From positions 1-33,685 of the IMG/VR virus record IMGVR_UViG_3300044260_000023: a stretch of DNA of 33,685 bases. One strand, 5' to 3'. The position numbers and the translations under genes were made by a program. The notes below the pieces were generated by a model. It was not told the origin of the DNA, did no database searches, and was given only the letters and a program-made list of their open reading frames with translations. This stretch comes from a virus. Its lineage: Duplodnaviria > Caudoviricetes. Below, piece by piece: positions 4,872 through 33,685 of this stretch. Within the stretch, counting starts at the first letter, position 1. Every line of letters starts with the position of its first letter.

Positions 4872-5184
4872 GACTACCGTCAGCGTGCTTTCCCTGCTGA
4901 ATGAACTCCACACAGCAGACCGCAGTACCTATGTTGTTGCTAGTCCAGCGGCGATAAGAAGTCCACTCGAACACACCGGCTGGAGAACCGCACGTGCAGA
5001 ACAAGGTACTGCCCCGGCGACCTTCCATGTTCGGCTCACGAAACACAAAGTGCATGGACGTGGGCAGACAGGGATACCACTGGTGATGGCTGGGCAGGTA
5101 AATCTCAGACGACCGGCTCACCCACTCGCCGGTGATGGTCTGTGCATGGTTGGGGTCAGCGTGATTGCGAATAACGTGTGCCAT
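4864..5184 (-). CDS. Hypothetical protein with Cys/His cluster (FCTCG...CC...H)
   Basis: Fills the gap between the glycosyltransferase and rfbF with short overlaps at both ends. Confidence 0.6.
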   Translation of the reverse strand: MAHVIRNHADPNHAQTITGEWVSRSSEIYLPSHHQWYPCLPTSMHFVFREPNMEGRRGSTLFCTCGSPAGVFEWTSYRRWTSNNIGTAVCCVEFIQQGKHADGSHE

Positions 5185-6083
5185 TAGAAACCGCACTCCT
5201 GAAAGATTTGACCAATGCGTGCATCATAGGTGTGGGGCTGCACGGTCTTGTGAGCTTCGTGAGCAATGATGTCAGCAGTCTCGGGATGCTCTTTGGCCCA
5301 CAGCACTTTCTCTACTGCTTCATCCATCGTACCAAAGGCCAGATAGTCCACACCTTCAGTGAACCACTCGGCAAGGTCAGGCACCCGGTTGATGACCGGG
5401 CACAACTGCATTGCCATCAGTTCGAACACTCTGGCATTCAAGTCCAACAGCGATGACCAGTTCAGTCCAATCTTGGCACGCTGGTAGATGGCACGGGCTT
5501 CATCGAACACAGGCCCGTTCTCAAAGACCACCTTGATACCTTTGCTCTGGAGCCTAGCCACCCACTCCACACGCTGTGGGTAGGGCATGCCAATCATGGC
5601 AGCATCCACCGGGTCTGGAGCTTCACCGGGTATCCACACCGTGGGGTCATACGCATAGGGCAGGTAGATATCTCCCGGCTGCATGTAGACCTTCTGCATG
5701 TTGAAGAACTTGTCGCTCACCTTGCGAGTGTGGGCATAGTCCAGAACGTGTGGGTCAGTGCCCACTGCTACTGACATCACATCGGGCTTTTCTGCCCAGC
5801 GAAGGCCAGCGTCCACGTTGATAACGAAGTCTGGTCTCCAGCCATTCAACTGGTGCAGAACGTACTGGTAGTCCACCAGAGCACCCATCGGTGGGTAGGG
5901 CAGGTTCACATCGCCCGGATGCATGTACTTCACTGGCAGGTGCATGCCGTGCAACCACGGGATGAATGACCCGCTGTATGGGCCAGCCACCTTCAGTTCA
6001 ATATCCTTCCTGCGCTCCAGAGCACGTCGAAAGTACGTGCCCATGGCAAGTGGATAATTGAGATACAGCAGCAAGACTTTCAT
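5184..6083 (-). CDS. Glycosyltransferase, GT-B CgeB/Glyco_trans_1_2-like
   Basis: YLPYAYDP, IGMPYPQR, YQRAKIGLN, LNARVFELMA, IAHEAH...HTYDARI are typical of CgeB-like GTs. Confidence 0.85.
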   Translation of the reverse strand: MKVLLLYLNYPLAMGTYFRRALERRKDIELKVAGPYSGSFIPWLHGMHLPVKYMHPGDVNLPYPPMGALVDYQYVLHQLNGWRPDFVINVDAGLRWAEKPDVMSVAVGTDPHVLDYAHTRKVSDKFFNMQKVYMQPGDIYLPYAYDPTVWIPGEAPDPVDAAMIGMPYPQRVEWVARLQSKGIKVVFENGPVFDEARAIYQRAKIGLNWSSLLDLNARVFELMAMQLCPVINRVPDLAEWFTEGVDYLAFGTMDEAVEKVLWAKEHPETADIIAHEAHKTVQPHTYDARIGQIFQECGF

Positions 6084-6736
6084 TGGATGTTCCATTTTTC
6101 CTTGAACTTCTCTCTGTTACGCTCTGTCAATGCCTGACGCTCCGAGCCGTAGGAGATGGTCTGGGCACCTATGTGCTCCACCAATCCCGCTGCCATTTCC
6201 ACCAAAGACGAACCCATTGCCACAAACATCGTAGAAAGGTCAACGTCTTCATAGTCATTCGGCGCATAGCGTTCATCAAAGCCTCCGACTAAATCCCATG
6301 CGGAACGGCTGAACCCGAGACACCAGCCTTCTGCGTAGGGATATGTTTTTCCATTGAAGGTATTCCATCCGGTGTCATTCTGGTAGACCTTACCACCCAG
6401 CAGTGAGTTGGGATATATCCGCAGAGTGGACTTGGCTACCACCCCCAGATTGCCATGCACACGGACATCGTTGGACAGCAGCACCACCAAGTCACCATGG
6501 GACATGCGCACACCACGGTTGGCTGCACGCAGGAACCCTTCGTTCTCGGTGACTCGAATGACATCCAATGGGAGCAGGTCGCTCTCTTCCCACCAGTGCA
6601 ATCCTGTAACTTCTGTGGAGCCGTTATCTACCACCACTACTTCATCGAACGACCGACTGTTGTTGAAGATGTCGTAGAGTAGCTGGTGCGTCAGGTCGTA
6701 ATGGTTATACATGGTTATTACAGCAGAGATTTTCAT
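6080..6736 (-). CDS. Glycosyltransferase family 2
   Basis: MKISAVITMYN, VVVVDNGS, NEGFLRAANRG, LLSND, VGGFDERY..YEDVDL. Confidence 0.9.
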   Translation of the reverse strand: MKISAVITMYNHYDLTHQLLYDIFNNSRSFDEVVVVDNGSTEVTGLHWWEESDLLPLDVIRVTENEGFLRAANRGVRMSHGDLVVLLSNDVRVHGNLGVVAKSTLRIYPNSLLGGKVYQNDTGWNTFNGKTYPYAEGWCLGFSRSAWDLVGGFDERYAPNDYEDVDLSTMFVAMGSSLVEMAAGLVEHIGAQTISYGSERQALTERNREKFKEKWNIQ

Positions 6737-7146
6737 TTTATCTGATGGGGGCAAGTTCTACCAAACCGAACGGCAGAATTGCAATTCATGCATAGGATTC
6801 GATAGTGAGTTGGGTCATAGTTCTTGATGGCCTTGCGCATGGCAGTGGATGATGCTTCTTTCTTGAAGACACCCACCTGACCTTGAACATGGTCAATGGT
6901 TAGAAATGTGGGTTCGGTCTCACCACAGCAAACACACCGACCACCATACATCTCCAGAAATGAATTGCGGAGCTTTTCGTCCCGATTGCGATACCACACC
7001 TTGGACTTCTCTGGATTGTCTTTCTTGTATTGAATGCTCTTCTGGATAAGCGATGACCGGTTACGACGATACCTAGCATGCTGCTTTTCCAGTATGCTCT
7101 CTTTGTTCTTCTGGTAATACTGCGTATGGTATTCGTCCATCTTCAT
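6733..7146 (-). CDS. HNH endonuclease (free-standing)
   Basis: Basic helical N-terminus (YYQKNKE...), then CVCCGE..FLTIDHV...ILCMNCN...CPH; 4-nt overlaps with both neighbours. Confidence 0.85.
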   Translation of the reverse strand: MKMDEYHTQYYQKNKESILEKQHARYRRNRSSLIQKSIQYKKDNPEKSKVWYRNRDEKLRNSFLEMYGGRCVCCGETEPTFLTIDHVQGQVGVFKKEASSTAMRKAIKNYDPTHYRILCMNCNSAVRFGRTCPHQIK

Positions 7147-7373
7147 CCTAATCCTTGAAACAAGTAGAACCGTCCTTCCAGTTCTCGCTTGTAAATTAGC
7201 TTCTTGGTCTTCAGGCTCTCTTCCCATACTTCTTCGAACGTCTGGAAGTCCTGTGCTTCTTCCAGAAATGGAAAATACAAATACGGCGGGTCATCTGGGA
7301 AGGCGTATGACTTGCCATCCAGTGGCCCACCAATCAGGTTACACACATATACACGCTCATCCTCTGACCACAT
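7143..7373 (-). CDS. Hypothetical protein (LIGGPLDG motif)
   Basis: Fills the operon gap; GGPLDG is a recurrent motif in small phage proteins; start uncertain. Confidence 0.55.
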   Translation of the reverse strand: MWSEDERVYVCNLIGGPLDGKSYAFPDDPPYLYFPFLEEAQDFQTFEEVWEESLKTKKLIYKRELEGRFYLFQGLG

Positions 7374-8193
7374 CCCTGTCCATTTGATTGAACCCGGCCC
7401 AATAATCATACTGTGGCATGCCCATCATCCGTGAACGGAACGTGCTCAGACCAGCCTTGTGGGGCCGGTCGGCAGCTTCAGATGCAGTCCATGGTGTGCG
7501 CCGGGGAGTTATCTTTATATCAGGCTTGAACATGCGTACAAAATCATCCATGAATTTGTACTGGCTGACCGTCTGGGAACCGGCGATGTGCAGCACATTG
7601 GGCATGTTCACGATGCGCTCTGCATACCATGCCAGACACTCTGCGAAGTGGGGCAGATACATATAGCTGCGATGAATGAACGTGGGATAGTCGTAACGGG
7701 GTTTGTTGGTAAGCTCTGTAGATAGACGAACCCAATCGAACAGATAGGATGTACGGATTACTCGCACTACAGGGAATGTGTGACGCAGACCTTCAGCAGC
7801 GAGCTTGCTCAATGCATACGAGTTGACAGTGTGATTGGAAATTGGGTCAGTTTCCTTGTATGGCCCTCCACCTAGTCCAAGGAATGACTTGCCCGAGAAC
7901 ACGTGCTCTGTGGACAGGAAACCTACTTGTATCTTTCTCTCATCACAGGCACGGAAGATATTCAGGGCACCAGTGAAGTTGACCCGCATCACCTCATTCC
8001 AATGGCTCTTGTCTTCACAGTAATCTACGTTGGAGATACCGGCCAGATGCAGAACCACGTGGGGCTTGACTTCATCTAGCGCACGCTCCACGTCTTCATC
8101 ATCGGTGATGTCACAGAAAAGTGGGACTACCCCCCATTTATCAACGAGGAGTCGTCCCACTCTACCTGTAGAACCCGTACATGCTATCTTCAT
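7357..8193 (-). CDS. Second RmlD-like NDP-sugar reductase/epimerase
   Basis: MKIACTGSTGRVG, CDITD, HLAGISNVDYCE, STEHVFSG, YALSK. Confidence 0.85.
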   Translation of the reverse strand: MKIACTGSTGRVGRLLVDKWGVVPLFCDITDDEDVERALDEVKPHVVLHLAGISNVDYCEDKSHWNEVMRVNFTGALNIFRACDERKIQVGFLSTEHVFSGKSFLGLGGGPYKETDPISNHTVNSYALSKLAAEGLRHTFPVVRVIRTSYLFDWVRLSTELTNKPRYDYPTFIHRSYMYLPHFAECLAWYAERIVNMPNVLHIAGSQTVSQYKFMDDFVRMFKPDIKITPRRTPWTASEAADRPHKAGLSTFRSRMMGMPQYDYWAGFNQMDRDVVRG

Positions 8194-9232: not shown

Positions 9233-9742
9233 TTATTTTTCTTCCACGATGTCCAGAATGCGCTTGTCCAAATCCTGTAGTGCGGCCATGTCGGTACCAG
9301 CACGCTGGAGCTTCTTGATGATGTTGTTTAGTTCGGCCACACTCTCATGTTGCTGCTCCACCTTCTCATACAGGAAGTTGCAGGTGTCCGGGTCTTCACA
9401 GTCTTCGGACAACTGGTACAGTTCTTCCATGTATCTCCAGTATAGCTCTTCCAATTTCAGGGCCGCATTGAAGTAATCCAGCGGCACCGTGCTGAACAGG
9501 ATGGGAGGTATCTGGATATTGTTGTAGACCGGTCGAACGTTCCTCTCGGTCAGGTAGTGGTCGAAGTCTCTGGCATGCCCCAATTCTTCCTTCTCCGACT
9601 TGTGCATAAACTTGTGGAACCCGTACCATTCCTGCAAGCGAAAATCGCATCGCATCTGCTTGTAAACCAGAGCAGCAACCATTTCACGGTTCATCTGCAC
9701 CTGCAATGCATCGGCCATTCGGCTGTCCAGCAATACGCTCAT
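9233..9742 (-). CDS. ftn: Non-heme ferritin
   Basis: QMNRE..A..Y, EELGHA, ALKLE, DPDTCNFL...VEQQ ferroxidase-centre pattern; AGGAG RBS before ATG 9742. Confidence 0.88.
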   Translation of the reverse strand: MSVLLDSRMADALQVQMNREMVAALVYKQMRCDFRLQEWYGFHKFMHKSEKEELGHARDFDHYLTERNVRPVYNNIQIPPILFSTVPLDYFNAALKLEELYWRYMEELYQLSEDCEDPDTCNFLYEKVEQQHESVAELNNIIKKLQRAGTDMAALQDLDKRILDIVEEK

Positions 9743-9757
9743 GTATATCTCCTGAAT

Positions 9758-9788
9758 CAAAATACCGCACTAAGATTCTAGTGCGGTA
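9758..9788 (-). terminator. Probable intrinsic terminator after the SPFH gene
   Basis: TACCGCACTA-N6-TAGTGCGGTA 10-bp stem followed by TTTT on the minus strand. Confidence 0.6.
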
Positions 9789-9815
9789 CCTTGATGTTAG
9801 CAAACGTGACTTATA

Positions 9816-10739
9816 CTATTGACCGGTCGGGGTCGTATTCGGTAGCGGCAGGATGAACTGGTTGCCGCTGGGAACGAAGATGGTCTGCACGCCGGGGGCC
9901 AGCTTGGTGATGTACTGGTACTGGAGCAATTGCGGTGACAAGCTCTGGGTAATGAGAGTGTTAGCCTGTGCTTGGGCCTGTGCTTGCAGGACGGTGGCAT
10001 CTGCATTGCCCTTGGCAATCGCCACGTTCGCATCGCCCTGCCCCTTCGCTGTAGCCGCCGCAGTCTGGGCATCCACCTGTGCCTGTGCAAGTTTCTGCTT
10101 GGCCGTTTCCACTTGCTGCTGGGCCACCTGCTTGGCTTCAATCGCCGCATTGAATTCTGGTGAGAAGTCAAAATTCTCAATCAGGAAATTCTTGACCAGA
10201 ATGTGGTACGGTGCCGCCTGTTGCATAATCATGGTCTCTGCCTTGCTGCGAACTTCTTCACGCTTGGTGATAAGCTCTTCAGCAGTGTACCCGGCAGTCG
10301 TGGCCTTGAATGCGTTCTGAACGATGGGCGACAAGATGGTGTCTTTGAACCCCACACCGATGGTCTGGTAGACCGTAGCAGCCGATGATGGGTCGAGTGA
10401 GTAGTTGACTGCGATGGTGGCCTTGACTGCTTGCAGGTCTTTCGATGCAGCCGATGCGTCCACTTCATCTTTCTGGGTCTGAATGTTCATGCGCACGACG
10501 CCTTCAATGAAGGGCATCTTGGTATTGAACCCCGGATAGGTCACACGATTGACTGCACCCAGCCGGGTCACAACACCGACGCTGCCCGCCGGTACAGTAA
10601 AGAACCAGCCGAATGCCGCTGGTAAGAGCACCAGAACTGCGAATACTGTCAGACCAATACGACCATAGTTGATGCTGTACGAAGTGTGCATATCCCCGTA
10701 GCGGTCTTTCTCTTGCTTGGAACTAACGAACCAACCCAT
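9816..10739 (-). CDS. SPFH/prohibitin (band 7) family membrane protein
   Basis: N-terminal TM helix, VPAGSVGVVTRLG, SKDLQ, YTAEELITKRE, FSPEFNAAIEAKQVAQQ coiled coil. Confidence 0.92.
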   Translation of the reverse strand: MGWFVSSKQEKDRYGDMHTSYSINYGRIGLTVFAVLVLLPAAFGWFFTVPAGSVGVVTRLGAVNRVTYPGFNTKMPFIEGVVRMNIQTQKDEVDASAASKDLQAVKATIAVNYSLDPSSAATVYQTIGVGFKDTILSPIVQNAFKATTAGYTAEELITKREEVRSKAETMIMQQAAPYHILVKNFLIENFDFSPEFNAAIEAKQVAQQQVETAKQKLAQAQVDAQTAAATAKGQGDANVAIAKGNADATVLQAQAQAQANTLITQSLSPQLLQYQYITKLAPGVQTIFVPSGNQFILPLPNTTPTGQ

Positions 10740-12515: not shown

Positions 12516-14660
12516 TTATCCAGCACCCGTGCTCTTGCGGGCGATGGCACTAATCTGGGCGAAGGGTTTCTTCTCCACAGTCAGGCCACCAAGCTCCCCA
12601 CCAGCCTGTTGCTGCATGATGGTAGCTGTGCCGGGGTTGAACGAAATGGAACGGGGCTGCGGTACGTTGCTGCGGCTCACGACGGGCTGGCCGCTACCGG
12701 CAGCAATCTGGGCCTTCAACGTGGCAATCTCCTGCATCAGCGGAGCCATAGCAGCCTGAACAGCCGCCGTGACATCACCACTGCCACCATCGCTGTACGT
12801 GACCGACCGGCGAACTGCTTCACCAAGGTTGTTCATGTACGGCTGAAGTGCTTGCAGAGCCATGTCGCCATAGACGCCCTGTGACTTCAGGGTGACGACC
12901 TGATTGATAAGAGCCTTGGCCGTAACGACCAGAGCCTTCTCCATCTTGGCCTTCGGTTTCTTCTCTTCAGCAGCCTCTTCCTCTGGAGTTTCCTTGCCAG
13001 CGTAAGCTGCCTTGACGTTGGTCACTGTACCAGCAGGAGCACCCATCTCTTTGTCACCGGAAGGACTGACACTATCTTCCTTGGATGGGACTTCGGGATA
13101 CAGTTCGTCTTCATTGAAAATATCAATCATCTCAGGACTGCCGGGAACGGGAGCACCCTGAATCTTGCCTTTCTCAACTGGTGTAGCCATTGCTTTCTCC
13201 TTCTTGGAGGCTGAATCTTCGGGCCATTCCATGCCCGCCGAATGATATAGATTGCGCAATTTGGCGAGTGCTTTACCCTTGCCGGGGCCACCGTATTTCT
13301 TGCCACGGAAACCCTTAGTCAAGGCCGCATGAGCCGCCCCTAAATGTCTGGGACTAATCTTACCGCTGGTATCCTTCACTGGCAAATGCCATGTTGAAGG
13401 CTTAGACGAGTCCTCGACGTGTAGGTAATGGGATGCCGGGTGTTCACCATCCGGTTCTTTCTTCGTCAGCGACAACCACTTACCGGGCTTGTCGTTGGCT
13501 CCAACTTCAGGTGCCCCAGAGACACCGGGTGCCTTGGAAGGATGGTTGGCTTGCATCGCCTTCCGCATGGCAACCTGATGCCCCATCATCATCTGGTCAA
13601 TGCATTCCTGCTTGAACAGACCAGTGTTGGGGTCGTAGCAATCCTGATACAGGCTGGCATCCGTCATCTTCAACGTCTTGCCTTCGCCCTGATTGCGCCC
13701 TTCAAGCTCTGGCTCTCGGGTCACACTGCCACGTTCGACGGTGCCATCACTCTTGATGGTCAGCACGTCAGCGGCCTTCGACTTGTCCACCAGAACATCG
13801 GCAAGGTCACCAATAATGGACTTGGCATCGTCGGCCTTCGTAACAATCTCATCACTCATGGAACGCTCCACTTCTGCCTCGGTGCGGGGATTGACCGGCA
13901 CTCGGGTAAAGGCAAGATGCACAAGCACACCACTCTTGTAGACTTTTCCACCAATGTTCTGCATGCACATCGGACACTGGTCAGTCAGGTTCTTGCGCTC
14001 GAATGTAAAATCCATGCCGTTGCCGACATGCTGATGCTTCAAGTCCAGAAAACCGATGCTGATACGCACCGGGTCATGCTCACTCTGGGATTTCTCCTTG
14101 GCATACAGGTCTTCACACAACGCCTTGAACACTGCACGACCAAGGTCATTGTCACTCAGGACACCGACTGCCTTCAGGACATCCCCATCTACGTACACCT
14201 TCTCAAAGATGCCGGGTACGTTGCTGCCCTGTGGCCCAGCCTTGAAGTGACTGATGGATGGATAGGGCATGCCACCACACCACGTATCTTCACAGATGGC
14301 CGACTTGAACGCTTCAGGCACCGGGATATTCTTCTCGATGCGGTCTACGAAGTCCTGAAACAGTTCATTCGACATGCTCTCGGTGAACAGGTCTGGTGCC
14401 GTATCGGATGCCACTGCACGGAAACGCATGGCCCCGCCGTGGCGGGTCTCATACGCTGCCTTCACAATGGTCATCGAGAATTCGGATAACTGGCTCTTCT
14501 GCCACTCACCCTTATCAGACTTGCGGTACCCGGCCTTCTTCAGACCAGCCCAAGCTGTCTGTGCAGCCTTCTGCTTGTCACCCTTGTACTCGTCCAGAGC
14601 ATTGTTGTAAATCTTCTCAAAGGTGTTGGCTGCTTCGCCATGTAGTGTGGAATAAGGCAT
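12516..14660 (-). CDS. ChaB domain + prohead protease + scaffold fusion
   Basis: N-terminal MPY...YNNALDEY...AAQTAWAGLK..Y.K...GEW (ChaB); ASDTAPD...H...ISIGF...LAFTRVPVNPRT (prohead protease); low-complexity C-terminus; located between portal and MCP. Confidence 0.8.
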   Translation of the reverse strand: MPYSTLHGEAANTFEKIYNNALDEYKGDKQKAAQTAWAGLKKAGYRKSDKGEWQKSQLSEFSMTIVKAAYETRHGGAMRFRAVASDTAPDLFTESMSNELFQDFVDRIEKNIPVPEAFKSAICEDTWCGGMPYPSISHFKAGPQGSNVPGIFEKVYVDGDVLKAVGVLSDNDLGRAVFKALCEDLYAKEKSQSEHDPVRISIGFLDLKHQHVGNGMDFTFERKNLTDQCPMCMQNIGGKVYKSGVLVHLAFTRVPVNPRTEAEVERSMSDEIVTKADDAKSIIGDLADVLVDKSKAADVLTIKSDGTVERGSVTREPELEGRNQGEGKTLKMTDASLYQDCYDPNTGLFKQECIDQMMMGHQVAMRKAMQANHPSKAPGVSGAPEVGANDKPGKWLSLTKKEPDGEHPASHYLHVEDSSKPSTWHLPVKDTSGKISPRHLGAAHAALTKGFRGKKYGGPGKGKALAKLRNLYHSAGMEWPEDSASKKEKAMATPVEKGKIQGAPVPGSPEMIDIFNEDELYPEVPSKEDSVSPSGDKEMGAPAGTVTNVKAAYAGKETPEEEAAEEKKPKAKMEKALVVTAKALINQVVTLKSQGVYGDMALQALQPYMNNLGEAVRRSVTYSDGGSGDVTAAVQAAMAPLMQEIATLKAQIAAGSGQPVVSRSNVPQPRSISFNPGTATIMQQQAGGELGGLTVEKKPFAQISAIARKSTGAG

Positions 14661-24772: not shown

Positions 24773-25115
24773 ACAATACGAACAAATAGACGGACTGAAC
24801 ATATACAGAAAAGACCCGGATGGCACAGCCTATTCGGGTTTTTCTTCTGATGTGGAGCCTGTCATTACGTTGAGACACAATCTCCGGGGGAAAGAATTGA
24901 AGAACACAATCTATCATGAGATACTGCACATTCTTTACCCTTGGCAGAAGCACTGGTGGATTGAGTGCGCCGCAGAGGTACTTGCGAGAGGTGGTGGCCG
25001 GGGTTACTATAGTGGGGTCTACAATCACACACCAGAAGACTTACCAGACAGAGTAGTGCTGCTGGAGTTGGTGCGAAAACAGGTTATCAGATTCAATCTT
25101 AGGAGAGTGCAATGA
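24702..25115 (+). CDS. HExxH zinc metallopeptidase-like protein
   Basis: NTIYHEILHILYP...E. Confidence 0.65.
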   Translation: MPVKSYLAILSELGWPHIYLISPKQYEQIDGLNIYRKDPDGTAYSGFSSDVEPVITLRHNLRGKELKNTIYHEILHILYPWQKHWWIECAAEVLARGGGRGYYSGVYNHTPEDLPDRVVLLELVRKQVIRFNLRRVQ

Positions 25116-26614
25116 CGTTACATCGAATGGGCGACACCCTTGGTCGCCCGAGTTACGTTGCCATGGTGGTCAGGCGAGTAACTTCCACCCTTCCCCGATT
25201 TGACCCGACCAAGTATGGAGTAGCAGACTACAGTTTCTACGAAGGATTGATTGACTTCAATCTTGCCAAGACCAATGGTGTGCAACGGCCTGTCATTCGT
25301 GTGGGCCAAGGCTACTATGGTCTGGACACACAATTCAAGAATAGCTCGGTCTCCAGCAAAGGTGTGTTCCCTGTACGTGACTTCTATTGGATGCTGGACA
25401 CCAAGCAGAGTGCCAACGGCCAAGCCAACACCTGTGCCAATGCCCTGAAGACCTATGGCAATCTTGATTCGGACTCAATCCTGTGGGCTGACTTCGAACT
25501 GGCTCCAGCGAATGCCAGTTTCCTGTGGGGGTTCATCAGCACACTAAAGAGCCTGATGCCCGGTCTGAAAATTGGCATCTACACCGGCTACTCGTACTGG
25601 CAGACCTACGGCTCGACCAGTGCCACGTATGGGTTCAGTCAGTACCCACTGTGGATTGCATGGCCCGTTGACCCCTATCAGGAACCTGCACCGCTGGCTC
25701 CATGGACGACCTACTACTATCACCAGTGGACGTTCGCCGGTGATGGCAAGTTCTATGGTTGCCAATCTCTGGGAGTGGATTTGGATTATCTCAATCCCAT
25801 CTACGTGAACCCGGTGCCACCCCCGCCCCCACCTGTTGTGACCGGCACTGCTGCGACCTACACGGTCATTGGCTCACCTGCCAGCCGTGTGCGCAGTGAC
25901 CCGTCATTCGGTGACAACGTGGTAGCCAACATCCTACCCGGCTCTACGGTCTATGGTGAGATGACACCAGACAACCTGTGGCTGAAGGTGGAAGGCTATA
26001 TGTACAACACGGTCGTAACAGGCACCGTGACCACACCGACACCCCCGCCTCCCCCACCCCCGTCCAATCTCGGGCTGTATCGTGTCCTGACGGACGGTGA
26101 GCTACCACCCAGCTATGATTATGGTGGTAAGAGCCGCACAGCACAACCCGGCTGGGATGGCAATGCAATGACACCAGCAACGGTCAAGCTGCACGGAGTG
26201 AATGACCCCATATCAAACTTCAGTCCAGAAGCGGCTACTCTGGTGCAGACGTTGGACACCCCACACGGGACGTTCAACTATGTGACCCGCACTTCGGCGG
26301 GCTGGGCCAATGCGGGTCAGACTTGGCCTGACAAGATGGAGCCGATTGTGTTTGAAGGCAGTCCATCGCTACCGAACTATGTGGATGTGATTGCCGTGGA
26401 TGGTAACAAGGCATACATCCGAACGTGGCATGGAGAGACAGACCCCACGACCGATGCGGGCAAGGCTGTCATCCACCGCTGGACGAACATAGACCAGAAC
26501 AACAACTTGCATGGCACCACGAACCCAGCAGGTGATGGTATCGGATACATCGTTCTGGACTATGGCAATGATGGCGCACCGTGGATTGAATTGGATAGGC
26601 TAGTCAAAGTATGA
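25112..26614 (+). CDS. GH25 muramidase (endolysin-like) with SH3-like and additional C-terminal domains
   Basis: DYSFYEG, WADFE, GIYTG...W, YPLWIA, HQWT, GVDLD; two poly-Pro linkers; RVRSDPS...WLKV SH3b-like segment. Confidence 0.85.
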   Translation: MTLHRMGDTLGRPSYVAMVVRRVTSTLPRFDPTKYGVADYSFYEGLIDFNLAKTNGVQRPVIRVGQGYYGLDTQFKNSSVSSKGVFPVRDFYWMLDTKQSANGQANTCANALKTYGNLDSDSILWADFELAPANASFLWGFISTLKSLMPGLKIGIYTGYSYWQTYGSTSATYGFSQYPLWIAWPVDPYQEPAPLAPWTTYYYHQWTFAGDGKFYGCQSLGVDLDYLNPIYVNPVPPPPPPVVTGTAATYTVIGSPASRVRSDPSFGDNVVANILPGSTVYGEMTPDNLWLKVEGYMYNTVVTGTVTTPTPPPPPPPSNLGLYRVLTDGELPPSYDYGGKSRTAQPGWDGNAMTPATVKLHGVNDPISNFSPEAATLVQTLDTPHGTFNYVTRTSAGWANAGQTWPDKMEPIVFEGSPSLPNYVDVIAVDGNKAYIRTWHGETDPTTDAGKAVIHRWTNIDQNNNLHGTTNPAGDGIGYIVLDYGNDGAPWIELDRLVKV

Positions 26615-27183
26615 AGTACATCACCTTATTGTTAGTGCTCTTCATGGTGGCGTGTGTGCCGGTAACCCCGGCACCCGTCACTCCCACTGTCACCAGCGTA
26701 CCACCCACCATCGCTCCCGTTACACCATCTGGTGACAGCCAGTTCCTACCAGACCCGGTAATGACACCGGGTGAATTGAACCCGGCAGTCTCACAGGACA
26801 CCATACAGAACACCATCTGTGTGCCGGGATACTCGGGCAGCATCCGACCCCCTGTGAGCTACACGGATGCCCTGAAGGTCAAGCAGATAGCCTTGTATGG
26901 GTACACAGACACAAACACAGCAGATTACGAAGAAGACCATTTCATTCCGCTGTCGGTCGGCGGCAACCCCACTGACCCGAAGAACCTGTGGCCGCAGCCC
27001 CGCAACACATCACCATACAATGCCGCAGTGAAGGACACGCTTGAGTACACGCTGTACAAGGACGTTTGCGCTGGCACGGTCACTCTGGCCGATGCACAGC
27101 AAGCCATTGTCACGGATTGGGTGCAAGCCTATCGCACCTATGTCAGCGGCAACTTGGGTATCTCACTAACACCGGAGCCATAA
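26611..27183 (+). CDS. Lipoprotein with HNH-like nuclease domain
   Basis: Signal peptide with lipobox MVAC, Pro/Thr linker, YEEDHFIPLSVGG....NLWPQP...KD.LE. Confidence 0.75.
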   Translation: MKYITLLLVLFMVACVPVTPAPVTPTVTSVPPTIAPVTPSGDSQFLPDPVMTPGELNPAVSQDTIQNTICVPGYSGSIRPPVSYTDALKVKQIALYGYTDTNTADYEEDHFIPLSVGGNPTDPKNLWPQPRNTSPYNAAVKDTLEYTLYKDVCAGTVTLADAQQAIVTDWVQAYRTYVSGNLGISLTPEP

Positions 27184-27186
27184 ACT

Positions 27187-27963
27187 ATGTCAACTGGTTT
27201 TGACCGTTCTCGCATTATCCTGAACCGCAAGCGTGGGTATGCCAACTACTTTGGCGACTACCTGATGCGTGACTTCATCACGCCCGCTATGCGTGCTCGG
27301 GCCGCACAGGTTACGGCGCAGGTCTGGAATGTGCCGAGTGTGCTCGACCAAGGTGCCACCCCCCACTGTGTGGGCTATGCATGGGCTACCTACGGTATTG
27401 CGTTTCCTGTCCCTGATGCATGGGACAACAGCATGGGCGAGAAGATTTACTATGCCGCCAAGGTGATTGATGGTGAGCCGGGTCAGGAAGATGGCTCTAC
27501 CACACAGTCTGGCGTGCAAGCCTTCATGCAATTCAGCCAACTGCAAAACAACAGCTATGCCTTTGCCACCAACCTACAGGACATCATCACGTGGGTTCTG
27601 GCGAATGGCCCGGTCGTTGTGGGCACCAACTGGTACAACAATATGTTCAACCCCAGCAGCAGCGGTCTGGTGACCATTGCCCCGAACGATACGGTGGCTG
27701 GTGGTCATGAGTACACGGTCAACGGCGTGGACACCATCGCTGGCCTGTTCTACCTGACGAATAGCTGGGGCACGTCATGGGCCAATGGCGGGCACTTCCT
27801 GATGGACTTCGCTACGTTCCAGCGGCTCCAGACCGAAGGTGGAGATTGCTGCACGGCGTCTGAAGTTACCGGGCAACCCACACCCACTCCGACCCCGACC
27901 CCCACTCCGGTACCCGTACCCCCGGCACCGGGCTGCTCACCTATCAGCAAACTCTTCCGATAG
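27187..27963 (+). CDS. Papain-like (C1) cysteine peptidase
   Basis: DQGATPHCVG (Gln/Cys), GGHE (His), NSWG (Asn); C-terminal (PT)n tail. Confidence 0.88.
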   Translation: MSTGFDRSRIILNRKRGYANYFGDYLMRDFITPAMRARAAQVTAQVWNVPSVLDQGATPHCVGYAWATYGIAFPVPDAWDNSMGEKIYYAAKVIDGEPGQEDGSTTQSGVQAFMQFSQLQNNSYAFATNLQDIITWVLANGPVVVGTNWYNNMFNPSSSGLVTIAPNDTVAGGHEYTVNGVDTIAGLFYLTNSWGTSWANGGHFLMDFATFQRLQTEGGDCCTASEVTGQPTPTPTPTPTPVPVPPAPGCSPISKLFR

Positions 27964-28017
27964 TCTTAGCTGGTACTAATACAGAACAGAAGATATGAAT
28001 TTATACTGGAGCCTATA

Positions 28018-28269
28018 ATGATGCCTAATCGGAGTGCCCCACCGCAGGATGTACGGGATTTAGTGGATGAGTACCACAAGAATCCAAAGACCCGTGAGCT
28101 AGTTATCAACGACAACCTGTTCATCCTGTATGAGCTTACTATCACCCCGCCAGAGAAAGAAGGTGACCCTACTCTGGTATCTCTTGGTAAGCAGCTAAAG
28201 CGTGCGTACTGGCGGGATGCGACCGGGCTGACCCCGGAACAAGTCAAATCCATACTCGGCATCAGATAG
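28018..28269 (+). CDS. Hypothetical protein
   Basis: GGAG RBS; co-oriented. Confidence 0.6.
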   Translation: MMPNRSAPPQDVRDLVDEYHKNPKTRELVINDNLFILYELTITPPEKEGDPTLVSLGKQLKRAYWRDATGLTPEQVKSILGIR

Positions 28270-28276
28270 GAGACCT

Positions 28277-28462
28277 ATGGAAGAGCAAAACAAGTTCTTA
28301 GAGATGGCAGAGCACATCGTGGCTCTGGAGCGTGCACTGAATGAGACCATGCATGAAGCCACGGACTTGGGCTGGACACCGGTAGTGTTCGTCACTCCCC
28401 GGCCCGATGGCACCCAGCATGTGCACATCCACATAGACAATCCGACCCCGACCAGTGATTGA
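28277..28462 (+). CDS. Hypothetical protein
   Basis: AGGAG RBS. Confidence 0.6.
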   Translation: MEEQNKFLEMAEHIVALERALNETMHEATDLGWTPVVFVTPRPDGTQHVHIHIDNPTPTSD

Positions 28463-28775
28463 CCCAGACGACCCCCAGCAAGTGGAAGATGCGGTCACGG
28501 AAATTCAGACCGAATATGCCAAGCATATGTTTTTTGAGATTCGGGATGCTGCTGGGTTCGTTGCCGACGAGATAATCGTGTCTGTGACCTATCCCCGGTC
28601 GGATGGGACGCCTCACTCGGTGGAAATTCACCTGAAGGTGGACAAGGCCGAATTCGAAGAGGTTTTCCTTGACATGGCGAAGAGGAGGTTGATTGAAGAT
28701 GCAAAACGACACCTTGGACTCGACGCTGATGACATCGGCCCCGTGCCAGACGACCCCGACGACGCCCCTGAGTAA
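28455..28775 (+). CDS. Acidic hypothetical protein
   Basis: Overlaps the upstream stop; D/E-rich. Confidence 0.6.
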   Translation: MIDPDDPQQVEDAVTEIQTEYAKHMFFEIRDAAGFVADEIIVSVTYPRSDGTPHSVEIHLKVDKAEFEEVFLDMAKRRLIEDAKRHLGLDADDIGPVPDDPDDAPE

Positions 28776-28938
28776 GCGAATCAAGGACGCAGAGCAGGAC
28801 GTGATGTATGCAGACATGCAAGTTCTGCTGGACATCAGCAGCCTGAAACGGTCGATTCGGAGCCGTGCGGAAAAGAAGAAGAAATTAGAAGATTTACAGA
28901 AAGAACGGGATGAAAAGAAGAGTTCTAGGAAAAAGTAG
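28729..28938 (+). CDS. Small basic coiled-coil hypothetical protein
   Basis: Lys-rich ORF filling the gap; start uncertain. Confidence 0.4.
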   Translation: MTSAPCQTTPTTPLSKRIKDAEQDVMYADMQVLLDISSLKRSIRSRAEKKKKLEDLQKERDEKKSSRKK

Positions 28939-29078
28939 GAAGTTTTGGAACGTTTTGGGAAGTTTTGGAGCCTGTATAGAACTACCGTAAAACGTTCTGA
29001 TTTACAGGTAAAACGTTTCAGAACTTCCAGAACGTTCTATCCAGAACCCCCAGAACGTTTCAGTCGTCACCAGAACCT
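28938..29078. repeat. Array of degenerate RRAACGTTYY / CCAGAAC repeats
   Basis: GGAAGTTTTGG x2, GTAAAACGTT x2, CCAGAAC x4 and five AACGTT palindromes in about 140 nt of non-coding DNA. Confidence 0.75.
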
Positions 29079-29093
29079 ATAGGAGCTTACAAA

Positions 29094-29288
29094 ATGAGAA
29101 TGACCAAGAGAAAATTCATTGAGTTAGTCGCCCTGACCGTATTTGAAGTCTTGGCCCTTGCCGTGTGTGGCATCGCCTACACCGAGACCCACCTGTTCAT
29201 CTGGCGATTGCTGGGAGTGCTGCTGGCCTTCTTCTTGGGGTTCACCGGCAGTGCCGTGGTTGACCAGATTGTGCACAGGCGCAGGTGA
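29094..29288 (+). CDS. Small membrane protein (2 TM)
   Basis: AGGAG RBS; two hydrophobic helices. Confidence 0.65.
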   Translation: MRMTKRKFIELVALTVFEVLALAVCGIAYTETHLFIWRLLGVLLAFFLGFTGSAVVDQIVHRRR

Positions 29289-29457
29289 GACTTCCAGAGC
29301 TAGACCGATTTGCTTGGTGGCTGGTGGCACTTCTCGGGGCTACCATGGCAACGGTCGGTGGTGCCTTCTTCCAACCTTCTAATCCACTTCTCATCATACT
29401 TGGCGTAAGTGTGTGTATACTCGGTACAATCCATTACACAAAAGAATAGAGGACAGC

Positions 29458-29856
29458 ATGGCAACTAAAAAGCAAGCAATCCCGGCACCCATCATTCGAC
29501 AGTCCATCAGCATGAAGACGCTCCGCAGTCTTGGAGCCTGTTTCACCCACCGGGTCATGTTCCACCGGACGTTCGGCCCTGAGCAGGTGGTTCCCTTGGA
29601 TGAACAGACGTGGTTCACCGGCAAGGTGCCCATCACCGTGGAAAATCTGGTGAAGGCTGACGATGCGGGCCTGAGCTTGGAATGGCTCATGCTTCAGGTG
29701 CTCACGGACGACGACCACTTTGAGTACGAGAATAAGGCCCGTGCGCTGCACCGCAGGTACCTGCACAGTCCACAAACGCACGAACGCTACGTGCTGGCCC
29801 TGTCCAAGCTGCGCTACAAGTACCTGACCACCAAGTGGCACCCGAGGCGGCGATAA
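29458..29856 (+). CDS. Hypothetical protein
   Basis: GAGGA RBS before ATG 29458. Confidence 0.65.
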   Translation: MATKKQAIPAPIIRQSISMKTLRSLGACFTHRVMFHRTFGPEQVVPLDEQTWFTGKVPITVENLVKADDAGLSLEWLMLQVLTDDDHFEYENKARALHRRYLHSPQTHERYVLALSKLRYKYLTTKWHPRRR

Positions 29857-30064: not shown

Positions 30065-30189
30065 TATTGCGGTTACTGCACTCTCCAGAGTTCTGGACGG
30101 GCGTTTCGGTCGGCGTGGCGATGACCCTGTTATTCGTGCTCGTCGGGTACGGGGTCGTTGCCAACATTATCTTCCCAAAGGATTTATGA
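30061..30189 (+). CDS. Single-TM microprotein
   Basis: ATGA-coupled at both ends; MILRLLHSPEFWTG... Confidence 0.55.
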   Translation: MILRLLHSPEFWTGVSVGVAMTLLFVLVGYGVVANIIFPKDL

Positions 30190-30407
30190 TGATAGCGAGA
30201 ATACGGTTGGCGAACAATTGGCGGCAGGTGATACAGGTGACCGCAGTGGAGCTTGACCCGGAGACCCAGAACATCTTTGTCACTCTGGTCAACGGCAAGC
30301 GTGTGGCACTCATCAACGACAGCGTGGTGTCCGTGATGGATGGCGGCAAGGAAGTGGAGTACTTCGAAGGCAAGGCGTTTGTTCCCCCAGCGGAAGGTGC
30401 CGAATGA
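30186..30407 (+). CDS. Hypothetical protein
   Basis: ATGA-coupled at both ends. Confidence 0.6.
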   Translation: MMIARIRLANNWRQVIQVTAVELDPETQNIFVTLVNGKRVALINDSVVSVMDGGKEVEYFEGKAFVPPAEGAE

Positions 30408-30574
30408 AGAAGTATCTGCGACGGTATCCGGTTGGATTTCTGGGGGCTGCGTTGTGGGGGATATCGTGGGTCTTCGGTCTCGGGATGAACAACCATCTGG
30501 GTGGGGTGCTCATGCTCATTACAGGTGGGTTGGGATATCTGCTGATGTTTGGTTCGCTGCTATTGCCAGTGTAA
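30404..30574 (+). CDS. Small 2-TM membrane protein (56 aa, not in ORF track)
   Basis: MKKYLRRYPVGFLGAALWGISWVFGLG...LLLPV*; ATGA overlap. Confidence 0.6.
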   Translation: MKKYLRRYPVGFLGAALWGISWVFGLGMNNHLGGVLMLITGGLGYLLMFGSLLLPV

Positions 30575-30646
30575 CGGGGGAGTAGATGTTGGGGGGCAAG
30601 GTTGTAAATTCCAGATTATTTTATATGGTCATTGGGGCTTGGTCGT

Positions 30647-30660
30647 AGAACACCTGTTCG
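30647..30660. promoter_or_regulatory. Candidate LexA (SOS/Cheo) box
   Basis: AGAAC-ACCT-GTTCG matches GAAC-N4-GTTC; intergenic. Confidence 0.45.
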
Positions 30661-30742
30661 GATACACGAAATATGAGAGCCAGATTAATACACATTAGCT
30701 GAACCTTAGAACCTTAACAAATGAGAATTAGATTAGAGCCTA

Positions 30743-30770
30743 TTGCATTTCATTGTATAGCTGCTATACT
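30743..30770 (+). promoter_or_regulatory. Promoter for the right-hand (early-like) region
   Basis: TTGCAT-N16-TATACT with extended -10 (TG-C-TATACT). Confidence 0.5.
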
Positions 30771-31123
30771 GTATATGCAATTGAATACAGCTCAACGCAC
30801 TGGGGGCACACACCATAGTACCATCACACGCAACAGGTACAATTTGAGCCGAGGTTCAATAGATACACTAGGCACGGTTTCACTCATATCGACTCGCACA
30901 TTTACAACTTATCAGAGCACAATAGAACATAGGAATCGGACTATGTATCATCACATCGTGTGCATACAATCGAGGGCACTGAATCATATGTGAGTGTGAT
31001 TGTATGTTGAGTGTGATAGCCGTATATAATCCAATGTTCAGAATTGTGAAACGTTACCACTAATAACAAACATGCAATGCCATAACACTACATGACACAT
31101 AGATTCATGTATATGTTATGCAT

Positions 31124-31206
31124 TGCTTATAGTGCATCTGTTGACACTGAATCAATGTGTGCACTATAAGCAGTGAATCGCACTGCACACACACACATTC
31201 TGGAGG
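31124..31206 (+). repeat. Intergenic unit 1: hairpin + (CA)n + CTGGAGG
   Basis: TGCTTATAGTGCA/TGCACTATAAGCA arms enclosing TTGACA-N18-TATAAG; CACACACACACATTCTGGAGG. Confidence 0.7.
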
Positions 31207-31211
31207 ATATG

Positions 31212-31352
31212 ATGAAACACGAAAATTATGTACCGCTGTATATTGCTGTTGGTGTCATCTACTATGCGATGTGTCATCTTGCACACGTGAATCCAATGGT
31301 GCCCGTGCATGCTATCATGCATCTGGTATACGTTGCGATTCAATCATTATAG
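31212..31352 (+). CDS. Hydrophobic microprotein (46 aa, not in ORF track)
   Basis: GGAGG RBS; MKHENYVPLYIAVGVIYY...IQSL*. Confidence 0.55.
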   Translation: MKHENYVPLYIAVGVIYYAMCHLAHVNPMVPVHAIMHLVYVAIQSL

Positions 31353-31426
31353 TGTGCACTGTAGATGATAAGCTGGGCACTGCCCGAATCAATCCATGCT
31401 AGACAAACATACTATAGGAGTCAATC

Positions 31427-31705
31427 ATGATATACACTCGCAAGCAATTTATGCAAGTTGTGCGCAAGCTGGGCACATCCTACGAAGTAGATAACAACGG
31501 AGTCACCATGCATTGCATCACACACGAATCCGCTGTGATGGTATGCACTGGACTCGCTGTTATGTCTAACGTGCGTGCATCTGTTGTGCATGGCATTGAC
31601 GTACATGTTCCGTTTAATTCAAGCGGGCACACTATCAGAGCACAGCGGGCACAATTCGACTCCGTCAACATTATCCGGATTCACACTATGGGAGATTCGT
31701 TATGA
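31427..31705 (+). CDS. Hypothetical protein
   Basis: TAGGAG RBS. Confidence 0.65.
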   Translation: MIYTRKQFMQVVRKLGTSYEVDNNGVTMHCITHESAVMVCTGLAVMSNVRASVVHGIDVHVPFNSSGHTIRAQRAQFDSVNIIRIHTMGDSL

Positions 31706-31812
31706 AACACAATGTTCGTAAGTTGCTGGGATTCGTCGTTGTTGCTGTAGTATTCACACTGGCATTCTGGAGTGTGATAGGTGTCATCGGATTCGGCATT
31801 CTAGGCAATTGA
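31702..31812 (+). CDS. Single-TM microprotein (36 aa, not in ORF track)
   Basis: ATGA overlap, GGAG RBS; MKHNVRKLLGFVVVAVVFTLAFWSVIGVIGFGILGN*. Confidence 0.6.
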   Translation: MKHNVRKLLGFVVVAVVFTLAFWSVIGVIGFGILGN

Positions 31813-31817
31813 TTGAA

Positions 31818-31906
31818 TCGTGCTACTCTTGCACACGTTGATTCAGAATCAATGTGTGCAAGCGAGTCGAGTCAATCCGGAGTCGACTGTATACACACAC
31901 TGGAGG
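31818..31906 (+). repeat. Intergenic unit 2: double hairpin + (CA)n + CTGGAGG
   Basis: TCGTGCTAC, 17-bp arms 31828-31862, GAGTCGAGTCAAT...TCGACT, ACACACACTGGAGG. Confidence 0.75.
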
Positions 31907-31913
31907 TTATAGA

Positions 31914-32270
31914 ATGTCTACCACATACCACAAGCTGGACTCGAATATCACCAACATAATTTTGACTCATGTTGGTGAGTCGAATGGCGAGTCAATTGTG
32001 CACATTCGAATCGAGGGACTCGCCTGCACTGTTGATGCAACGATTCCAGATGATAAGCGATTCGATTTTCTTGCCATGTGGATTGAAATGGATTCATATG
32101 TGACTCGCTATGCATCGGGGAATGGTCGCATGGCATTGCAATATTCATTGCATGCACAGATGACAAGGAACGCACTGCCCGAGTCATGGTTTATTGATGA
32201 ATTCGGATATCCGCATCAATACGGATTCATCCTGTTATCTGTGCAAGAGAATCGAGTGAATTTAGCTTGA
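31914..32270 (+). CDS. Hypothetical protein
   Basis: GGAGG RBS before ATG 31914. Confidence 0.7.
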   Translation: MSTTYHKLDSNITNIILTHVGESNGESIVHIRIEGLACTVDATIPDDKRFDFLAMWIEMDSYVTRYASGNGRMALQYSLHAQMTRNALPESWFIDEFGYPHQYGFILLSVQENRVNLA

Positions 32271-32271
32271 G

Positions 32272-32357
32272 TCGTGCTACATGTGCACATGTGAATTCAC
32301 GTGTGCACATGAGTCGAGTCAATTCTGAATTCGACTATATCACACACACACTGGAGG
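32272..32357 (+). repeat. Intergenic unit 3: double hairpin + (CA)n + CTGGAGG
   Basis: TCGTGCTAC, 32-nt near-palindrome 32280-32311, GAGTCGAGTCAAT...TCGACT, CACACACACACTGGAGG. Confidence 0.75.
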
Positions 32358-32365
32358 ATTATAAA

Positions 32366-33196
32366 ATGTTAGACGTTATGCAAGATGAAGAGTCAAGGAT
32401 TCATGCACTGTATCACGTGAATACCAACGTGCGCACACATGAATTCGATTATCTGAAGGTGCACCATGCAAAGAGATTCGGAGTCAATGTTCTGAATTTC
32501 AAGCACAGTGCAAACAACGATAAAATGCAAGCATTGAGTCAAGCGAAGAGTCGAGTCGTCACAACGACTGACATTCTAGCGGGCACAACATGCCCGCAAG
32601 CTGGGGATTGTAAGGCACGAGTCAATCCGGATACGATGCGACTCCAGATATACGACTCCACTAAGTATATATGCTACATGGCGAAAATTGAGTCGCAACG
32701 TCGCAACGTGTACGATGCACACAAGTACAATACAGATAAGATTCTGGAGTTGTTGCGCACACATGGCGAGTCATATGTTGCGACTCTGATATCAGATGAT
32801 TTGCAACGTCTGGGCACTGGAATTCATCGGATACATTCTGGGGGTGATATGTTCCGACCGGATTACACCAGAACATGGATTCGAGTCGCTGAAATGAATC
32901 CGGATATTCTATTTTTCGGATACACTAAGAATCACGTCGCATACGATATGCTAAACAACGTGCACTATAGCAACTTAGGATTTGCTTTTAGCTGGGGGAG
33001 TCGTCACGACTCCATGGTTCGTGATTCTGACGTTGTTGCATACGTTGCAACGACTCCAGATGAAATTGAGTCATTCGAATCCGCCGGAATTCCGGTTATC
33101 TGTCGCAATGATGAACATTCGAATCCATTCAAGTACTCGGAGGATTTTGACTATATCATGGGGATTCGGCATTCGTTTGCACTGGAGGTGCACTAA
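32366..33196 (+). CDS. Gp88-family (radical-SAM-like) phage protein
   Basis: AGTTCPQAGDC...CYMAK, RIHSGGD, W...A...P...FFGYTK; GGAGG RBS before ATG 32366. Confidence 0.75.
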   Translation: MLDVMQDEESRIHALYHVNTNVRTHEFDYLKVHHAKRFGVNVLNFKHSANNDKMQALSQAKSRVVTTTDILAGTTCPQAGDCKARVNPDTMRLQIYDSTKYICYMAKIESQRRNVYDAHKYNTDKILELLRTHGESYVATLISDDLQRLGTGIHRIHSGGDMFRPDYTRTWIRVAEMNPDILFFGYTKNHVAYDMLNNVHYSNLGFAFSWGSRHDSMVRDSDVVAYVATTPDEIESFESAGIPVICRNDEHSNPFKYSEDFDYIMGIRHSFALEVH

Positions 33197-33213
33197 CATT
33201 CTGTATTGTGCAT

Positions 33214-33286
33214 TGGTGCCATGTGTGCGATACATGGCACCATAGCAGAGTCTAGAATGTCAACATACCAGACTCCAGACTGGAGG
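33214..33286 (+). repeat. Intergenic unit 4: hairpin + ACTGGAGG
   Basis: TGGTGCCATGT-N7-ACATGGCACCA perfect 11-bp stem, later ACTGGAGG. Confidence 0.6.
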
Positions 33287-33478
33287 CATGCACACACATA
33301 CATACCATGGGCGCATGCGTGCACGCACGCAGGAGGCGCACGCACGCCAGAGCAGCCGGGGCCAACCCTTACGCAGAGTCGTAGGTCGGGCGCATTTACG
33401 GCGCATACGGGGCACCTGATTGCGGGCACCCTGTGACGCCACATATTGAGTCTGAATCATGATACTGGAGGAATCAAA

Positions 33479-33685
33479 ATGGAACAGGTCACCTATTACG
33501 AATACGAATGGCATGAAATGGAAAAGCTAATCATTGACTCACTGCGCAACGGAGTCGATGGTGATGTAACGCATGCACAGGAATTTTCCATAGTGGCTCT
33601 GGAAGAGTGGAATAATGACTCTGACCATGCGTTCGATGTGTCGCAGAAGTATGTAGACAATCCCGTGTTCTTTGGTGATGATGAT
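33479..33685 (+). CDS. Highly acidic hypothetical protein (truncated by window edge)
   Basis: CTGGAGG RBS; MEQVTYYEYEWHEMEKLIID...FFGDDD, open to the end of the window. Confidence 0.7.
   Translation, partial: MEQVTYYEYEWHEMEKLIIDSLRNGVDGDVTHAQEFSIVALEEWNNDSDHAFDVSQKYVDNPVFFGDDD

Follow-up and report, generated by a model that had tools for sequence, protein, structure and literature searches.

Local saturation with GANTC and loss of other short words at the end of an uncultured tailed-phage contig

At the end of a contig from an uncultured sediment tailed phage (Caudoviricetes; IMG/VR record IMGVR_UViG_3300044260_000023), a block of DNA at 30880-33685 is saturated with the gapped palindrome GANTC and poor in many other short words. 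The window that we analysed is the whole stretch of 33,685 nucleotides (nt), a 33.7-kb fragment, 42% complete. The block holds 75 GANTC sites, a density of 26.7 per kb, whereas the other 30.7 kb has 45 sites (1.47 per kb). This amounts to 6.8-fold over 1/256 and 18-fold over the rest and bears out the local saturation reported in an initial annotation made from the letters of the sequence, whose sample counts (14 sites in 31921-32280, none in 1-360) were also right. Base composition predicts 10.8 sites for the block and 119 for the remainder of the window, which is depleted in this word. Windows of 500 nt always contain 8-21 sites inside the block and never more than 5 outside it, all four middle bases are represented (GAGTC 26, GAATC 17, GATTC 17, GACTC 15), and the left edge is sharp, with a change point at 30890 (30810-30930). 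Our analyses confirm that this signal is real, strong and no artefact, and show that it consists of two separable layers, a purge of words and a gain specific to GANTC.

The GANTC excess survives shuffling of the block with preservation of dinucleotides (11.7 sites, z 18), trinucleotides (17.2, z 15) and even 4-mers (52.7, z 6), as well as control for synonymous codons. There are 52 sites in the six open reading frames (ORFs) listed below (1926 nt), spread over all three frames, and 23 in the spacers (880 nt); recoding these ORFs synonymously with the codon usage of the block leaves 22.6±3.0 sites (at most 31 in 500 recodings) and shuffling their codon order 9.5. Equal density in genes and spacers, together with the shuffles and the recoding, places the signal at the level of DNA, as the initial annotation had argued. 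The cost to the encoded proteins is visible in several ways. Among the positions where the protein sequence permits a GANTC, 52 of 81 are used in the block, against 5.3% of 529 in 24 other genes, and such positions are themselves more frequent (0.126 per residue versus 0.072), with Asp/Glu-Ser pairs in 18 of 74 cases in the block and 33 of 853 elsewhere. The longest block protein, a member of the gp88 family, has 0.152 possible sites per residue, beyond the whole range of 149 homologues (median 0.073, maximum 0.131). Proline and lysine are less frequent in the block proteins, and histidine more frequent. The excess of GANTC is thus the product of selection on DNA, paid for in codons and protein sequence. 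Conversion is uneven, since 60% of GAG and 53% of GAC lie inside GANTC compared with 31% of GAA and 27% of GAT (chi-square 29, p 2e-6), a preference that matches the purge of AG and CC contexts. The sites are spaced slightly more evenly than random (coefficient of variation 0.79 versus 0.97, p 0.025, with a control that permitted overlapping sites) and show no helical phasing at 10.5 bp (Rayleigh p 0.29).

The purge concerns a large part of the vocabulary. Only 828 distinct 5-mers occur in 30851-33260, whereas 19 windows of this size elsewhere have 912-980, and the core at 30880-33260 is devoid of GGCC, GCNGC, CCNGG and GGNCC, which occur 134, 172, 118 and 66 times in the rest (0 observed, 38 at the rate of the rest and 11.9 by dinucleotide shuffle). 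We modelled a purge without any other force as a maximum-entropy chain in which absent or rare 5-mers are forbidden, longer or bipartite forbidden motifs lying outside the model. With 482 words forbidden, it reproduces TGCA (41 vs 42), CATG (34 vs 29) and TCGA (17 vs 18). The abundance of these three words, which the initial annotation had placed alongside GANTC, is indeed raised, although only 2.8-, 2.1- and 3.4-fold, and it disappears under dinucleotide or trinucleotide shuffles: it is a by-product of the purge. GANTC behaves differently, as forbidding 200, 352, 482 or 576 of the 1024 5-mers yields 19, 25, 26 or 40 sites versus 67 observed. In addition, the highest-ranking of the 512 5-mers in the block is GACTC and the next GAATC; these are independent word pairs, and both are depleted in the rest (observed/expected 0.42 and 0.38). 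The two explanations initially offered, a code on the DNA or motif purging, thus each hold for different words, as purging accounts for TGCA, CATG and TCGA and fails for GANTC, and these excesses and ranks imply that something recognises GANTC.

The suspicion that the segment belongs to a different genome did not hold up. Two contigs, X1 (30082-33259), which may be the source assembly, and X2 (30203-31561), from another study, span the block edge without differences, and none of the 29 words missing from the rest turns up in the block (0 occurrences vs 40 expected). The contig stops inside the block, where strain variants part (from ~33260-33460). The features of the block (protein lengths in amino acids, aa) and the two genes used below as a map anchor and as a host clue are the following.

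30586-30890, no strand: AT-rich spacer at the left block edge (sequence, change point)
30880-33685, no strand: GANTC-saturated, vocabulary-poor block (75 sites), running past the contig end
30880-33260, no strand: core with zero GGCC, GCNGC, CCNGG and GGNCC (word counts)
31095-31215, plus strand: repeated intergenic unit, copy 1, with an inverted repeat (31118-31178), a CA-rich run and a GGAGG site
31212-31352, plus strand: 46-aa ORF with a GGAGG site upstream, no family (ORF and family search)
31427-31705, plus strand: 92-aa ORF, no family (ORF and family search)
31702-31812, plus strand: 36-aa hydrophobic ORF, no family (ORF and family search)
31795-31916, plus strand: repeated intergenic unit, copy 2, with an inverted repeat (31828-31862) and tandem GANTC
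31914-32270, plus strand: 118-aa ORF, no family, Atlas without a usable match (ORF and family search)
32250-32368, plus strand: repeated intergenic unit, copy 3, with an inverted repeat (32280-32311) and tandem GANTC
32366-33196, plus strand: gp88-family protein (PF17338, phrog_1392), 276 aa, by family match, with residue pairs bent to GANTC-compatible ones
33196-33260, no strand: inverted repeat after the gp88 gene, with 29-nt arms (repeat search)
33479-33685, plus strand: ORF truncated by the contig end
17143-18657, minus strand: terminase large subunit, map anchor for relatives
25112-26614, plus strand: GH25 endolysin, host clue only

The repeated intergenic unit is likely a promoter and translation unit. 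Sigma-70 promoters and terminators are as numerous as in shuffles, and Rfam gave no match. Small genes of a putatively early type and repeated intergenic units are traits that the block shares with the first-entering DNA of T5-type phages; no match to the A1/A2-type family of two-step injection was detected among its ORFs. The gp88 family has three invariant cysteines, and the confident structural model of the block member (predicted local distance difference test, pLDDT, 89) shows a partial alpha/beta barrel with only non-significant barrel matches (best E 0.012), no solved relative being found by sequence or by fold. As a route to relatives, gp88 gave no locus by single-protein search and no word-index match, PF17338 was absent from all 27 relatives, with no match in controls either, and a pattern scan was dropped because the alignment is too variable. 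A 15-base spacer motif led to 29 unrelated loci, none of them saturated with GANTC.

Relatives were retrieved by alignment of homologues of the terminase large subunit (terL), which gave 59 viral loci, 27 of them traced to records and 23 taken whole; four records of 24-30 kb were left out of the comparison set. The comparison records, of 34-73 kb, come from a clade with 60-73-kb genomes and share 44-58% terL identity with the window, the closest cultured phages being remote (below 32%). Closer relatives, with terL 70-88% identical, also exist. The corresponding stretch is present in 21 records, and 15 of these have their most divergent 1.5-kb window at 5-16 kb upstream of terL, where the block lies too, records not being independent in this count and some peaks being possibly protein-driven. 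In complete relatives, a run of small genes heads the same strand leading to primase, helicase and polymerase genes. The window is the extreme case of a clade-wide odd region. As to whether related phages have a similar motif-saturated end, a question raised by the initial annotation, they share the odd composition at the same map position and none has a comparable density of GANTC. Outside this region GANTC is under-represented in 20 of 20 relatives (observed/expected below 1), as is TTAA in 20 of 20; in a fixed 7-12-kb stretch both are relatively higher (in 15 of 20 and 14 of 20, respectively), mostly as a return towards expectation.

The relative G012 has an even narrower block at the map position of the one in the window (L133:5850-9730, ~25850-29730; 3.9 kb with 726 distinct 5-mers vs 954-986), in which an excess of AGCT, CTAG and TTAA is explained by purging under the maximum-entropy model. 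In this block GAC/GTC falls to 0.09 of expectation and GCWGC to 0, and beyond its four genes lies non-coding DNA that contains short direct repeats. With all 64 palindromes tested in relatives, no single-word excess is more than suggestive. In G009, the value for CCWGG (17 vs 5.8, -log p 3.9) is matched by the highest among 86 control blocks, G018 excepted, and GATC in G020 is weak (16 vs 7.8). GANTC is suggestive in G002 and G004, and in G004 it loses significance once the genes are recoded with the codon usage of that phage (29 vs 24.3). The G009 stretch (L120:14300-19300) carries 23 CCWGG in varied contexts over 5 kb of DNA with 32% guanine-cytosine (GC) content, at the same map position. 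G018 (L154-L156) has an approximately twofold genome-wide excess of CGNCG after codon control and nearly lacks AGCT, AGNCT, CTAG, CTNAG and TGCA. The syntenic block of G004 encodes (L103:9618-10076) an acidic 152-aa protein (phrog_25535) without Pfam match, the C-terminus of which presumably resembles ArdA-type anti-restriction proteins. A CAGGTRAAAC-like motif at block edges was not conserved across relatives, and 80 metagenome terL loci were mostly too short to reach the block, a hint of GANTC at terL being weak (3.4 per kb vs ~2.4).

Elsewhere, the window encodes a terminase, a portal protein, a cluster of nucleotide-sugar and glycosyltransferase genes and the GH25 endolysin. The sugar cluster (1-8193) lies amid virion genes and comprises an aminotransferase, epimerases, a nucleotidyltransferase, glycosyltransferases and a methyltransferase, being split by endonuclease VII and HNH genes; G012 has a similar cluster. 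In the head module, at 9233-10739 and 12516-14660, there are ferritin-like and Band 7 genes beside a 714-aa protein with an N-terminal ChaB domain. At 28920-29065, 1.9 kb left of the block, non-coding DNA carries short repeats, both direct and inverted, and is not kept as a motif in relatives. The entire window lacks GATC, CGCG, CCWGG, GGWCC and ~36 six-base palindromes. Such absence of palindromes is the usual sign of hosts rich in restriction systems.

Concerning the enzyme that would methylate GANTC, the initial annotation had proposed to look for it in phage or host; on the phage side, the DNA methyltransferase families PF01555, PF00145 and PF02086 have no member in the 42% of the genome covered. 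Relatives carry the same three families here and there, in 10, 4 and 5 of 24 records respectively, with two further methylase matches in G004, and both observations indicate that the writer is probably a host enzyme. No GcrA family protein (PF07750) occurs in 24 records, and YGAKTCK, the GcrA-type flank, is not in excess (16 of 150 vs 12 of 90 strands). GANTC shows no bias to promoters, as its density is equal in ORFs and spacers. The nearest Atlas clusters of the endolysin are commonest in Chloroflexota, a similarity that gives only a lead to a possible Chloroflexota host. A genome scan retrieved two short contigs in Bacteroidales and Planctomycetales bins, which are uninformative about the host, and a cluster look-up only candidate phyla radiation (CPR) bin names. 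Three Chloroflexi genomes methylate GANTC at 88-99% and also TTAA and GCWGC, two of the three having methylases listed outside restriction systems (PMC6329791). Methylated GANTC is under-represented more than twofold in genomes with the methylase (10.1101/2021.05.08.442635).

The reading that we favour, with a probability of about 0.4, is that a solitary GANTC methylase of the host, possibly one of the Chloroflexota, marks the adenines of the block and so blocks overlapping targets of defence systems. We infer here the first entry of the block, the methylation of its sites and its host. The block would enter the cell first and be expressed first, before any counter-defence exists, in a host population that may carry many restriction-type systems, and a conserved, restriction-free GANTC methylase would mark progeny DNA on both strands. 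Wherever a GA/TC could not be lost because of the protein or a ribosome site, its safest place would be within GANTC with the adenine methylated, and overlapping targets or half-sites (type I, IIG, III, BREX and some protospacer adjacent motifs, PAMs) might then be read as self or blocked. Elsewhere in the genome, protection would come from the counter-defence that the block encodes, and the usual mild avoidance of the methylated word would therefore persist. With a purge so strong that amino-acid composition changes, the one kind of adenine unable to start restriction at an overlapping type I, IIG or III site or half-site is one methylated by the previous host. A precedent for masking by a solitary methylase is the approximately tenfold lower activity of SaCas9 upon Dam methylation in the PAM (PMC12805903). 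Shielding fits the coincidence of the gain with the purge, the even spread of the sites and the twofold stronger conversion of GAG/GAC, and first entry would fit the gene content and the T5-like purge.

Several results weigh against shielding. No relative matches the density of the block, the best 2.8-kb window in 23 records having 29 GANTC, and the G012 block, although stronger, has 0. Block strength does not follow palindrome avoidance (Spearman 0.17, p 0.45, n 22). The other marks of Chloroflexi are not enriched, with 8 TTAA in the whole contig and 0 GCWGC in the core, and ~60% of the GA steps of the block remain outside GANTC. Words missing from the rest occur 7 times in the block, and 3 of these occurrences overlap a GANTC adenine against a baseline of 0.21, a direct check of masking that speaks neither for it nor against it. 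Contig depth over the block is not doubled (11.8 vs 10.4-12.4) and thus gives no sign of a long terminal repeat, a test limited by the flat depth of the contig, whose DNA may be cellular. Phage phiCbK has a host that methylates GANTC, and its terminal repeat is not rich in this word (24 vs 31 expected). Finally, T5 avoids host methylation (PMC10644984).

A close rival, nearly as likely as shielding though still tentative, is that GANTC, methylated or not, is bound by a protein, either of the host or injected by the phage with its DNA, which would cover the early block, the purge being a separate pressure; such a protein might activate transcription, protect the DNA, anchor it at the membrane or time events by methylation state. 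An excess that exceeds every purge model and has altered protein sequences, the tandem GANTC in the repeated intergenic units and the slightly even spacing would all agree with a docking protein, and readers of methylated words do exist, such as GcrA (PMC9836097) and those of origin clusters (PMC4752239). The lack of helical phasing, of a GcrA-type flank excess, of a GcrA family match and of promoter bias argues in the opposite direction, and docking leaves the twofold difference in conversion between GAG/GAC and GAA/GAT unexplained. At somewhat less than even odds, we propose more generally that first-entering DNA carries a methyl armour or a docking code: early genes may be rewritten, even in their amino acids, until saturated with the word of the solitary methylase of the host, so that the previous host would stamp the DNA as self for its successor or load a dedicated reader. 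The word would then differ between hosts, being GANTC in this phage and perhaps CCWGG in G009 and GATC in G020.

The remaining explanations appear considerably weaker. The phage might hypermodify its DNA and keep the early block free of modified contexts so that host RNA polymerase can read it, GANTC marks being a substitute protection or a block to the modifying enzyme; the sugar cluster in the window and in G012, and the tolerance in the rest of GGCC, GCNGC and CCSGG missing from the block, would suit this idea, which we nevertheless consider improbable, given that the rest still avoids dozens of palindromes, needlessly if hypermodified, that the cluster lies amid virion genes and may glycosylate the particle, and that no base-modification family has a match in the window. 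A methylation-timed origin or packaging site, like the GATC clusters at oriC or P1 pac, is equally doubtful. Words of solitary methylases cluster at origins (PMC4752239) and GANTC occurs near ori (PMC9836097), and the block spacers contain inverted repeats; however, known clusters are non-coding and lie beside replication or packaging genes, whereas here 52 of 75 sites fall in ORFs over at least 2.8 kb, 12 kb away from terL, and cumulative GC skew makes no turn at the block, its minimum being near 28500. GANTC as a mere leftover of the purge, or of neutral local homogenising, with no protein specific to it, is largely refuted: such a process suffices for TGCA, CATG and TCGA here, for AGCT, CTAG and TTAA in G012 and for GCGC in T5, but even with 56% of all 5-mers forbidden it yields only 40 of 67 GANTC, and two independent GANTC word pairs, both depleted elsewhere, rank at the top. 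As for a foreign origin, suggested by the sharp edge and the lower GC content (0.45 in the block vs 0.53 elsewhere), the bridging contigs and shared absent words refute an assembly chimera, and the outlier at the same map position in relatives also speaks against recent import; an old import later reshaped by selection belongs to this very unlikely remainder.

That phage DNA entering first loses restriction sites is already known; in the openly licensed papers searched, we did not find a methylation word gained so strongly that proteins are reshaped. Should the marks shield or load DNA, counter-defence would lie in the statistics of the sequence and not in a gene, and solitary host methylases would carry a cost. 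Entry order and host methylome could then be read from the genomes of uncultured phages with a general sequence marker.

Known systems resemble the block in part. In the CcrM/GcrA system of Alphaproteobacteria (PMC9836097), the same word is depleted in bulk and locally enriched; by contrast, the block has no GcrA match, no GcrA flank preference and no concentration of GANTC at promoters, its 27 sites per kb run through coding DNA, and the endolysin hints at a host among the Chloroflexota. Solitary GANTC/TTAA/GCWGC methylases of Chloroflexi (Anaerolineae CL500-11; PMC6329791) would supply the writer, although GANTC alone of this mark set is enriched in the block. Clusters at origins (Dam at oriC, TTAA in Arthrobacter, CTCGAG in Nocardia) are likewise local accumulations of a likely methylated palindrome, and they are short and non-coding (PMC4752239), unlike the block, which spans genes, alters proteins and is purged of other words as well. 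The leading regions of conjugative plasmids are also first-entering DNA under defence pressure, a likeness that presupposes the putative entry order of the block; PMC13478746 reports that restriction targets are not systematically depleted there and that 4-bp palindromes do not differ, and the effect in the block is far stronger and includes enrichment.

Among phages, the cluster at P1 pac is a short local, non-coding accumulation of a likely methylated palindrome. The phiCbK repeat (L251:1-10287) has 33 TTAA versus 7 expected and 24 CTAG versus 31, the next 25.7 kb having 7 versus 20 and 8 versus 80, respectively. The T5 comparison is the closest. T5-like phages are restricted only by sites in their first-step-transfer DNA (PMC10644984), and the first-entering repeat of T5 (AY543070) is purged, with 2 CCNGG versus 16.8 and 1 GGNCC versus 17.5. 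The pre-early DNA of T5 and BF23, like the block, combines small early-type genes and odd composition with the loss of CCNGG, GGNCC and other palindromes, and the block too has locally lost restriction-type palindromes tolerated elsewhere. T5 has a long terminal repeat and two-step entry, and the block is likened to it by gene content and purge alone; by this analogy, the block may belong to the class of first-step-transfer DNA. In T5 (L170:1-9100), CGC/GCG are 3.5-fold up and AGA and GAG halved. Both phages show a local excess of a short palindrome, GCGC in the case of T5 (53 vs 7.8 at the rate of the next 39.7 kb). This T5 excess is explained by dinucleotide content (53 vs 47 by shuffle) and the compositional divergence is smaller (z 2-6 vs 21-25 in the block), whereas the gapped methylation word of the block has been selected for itself.

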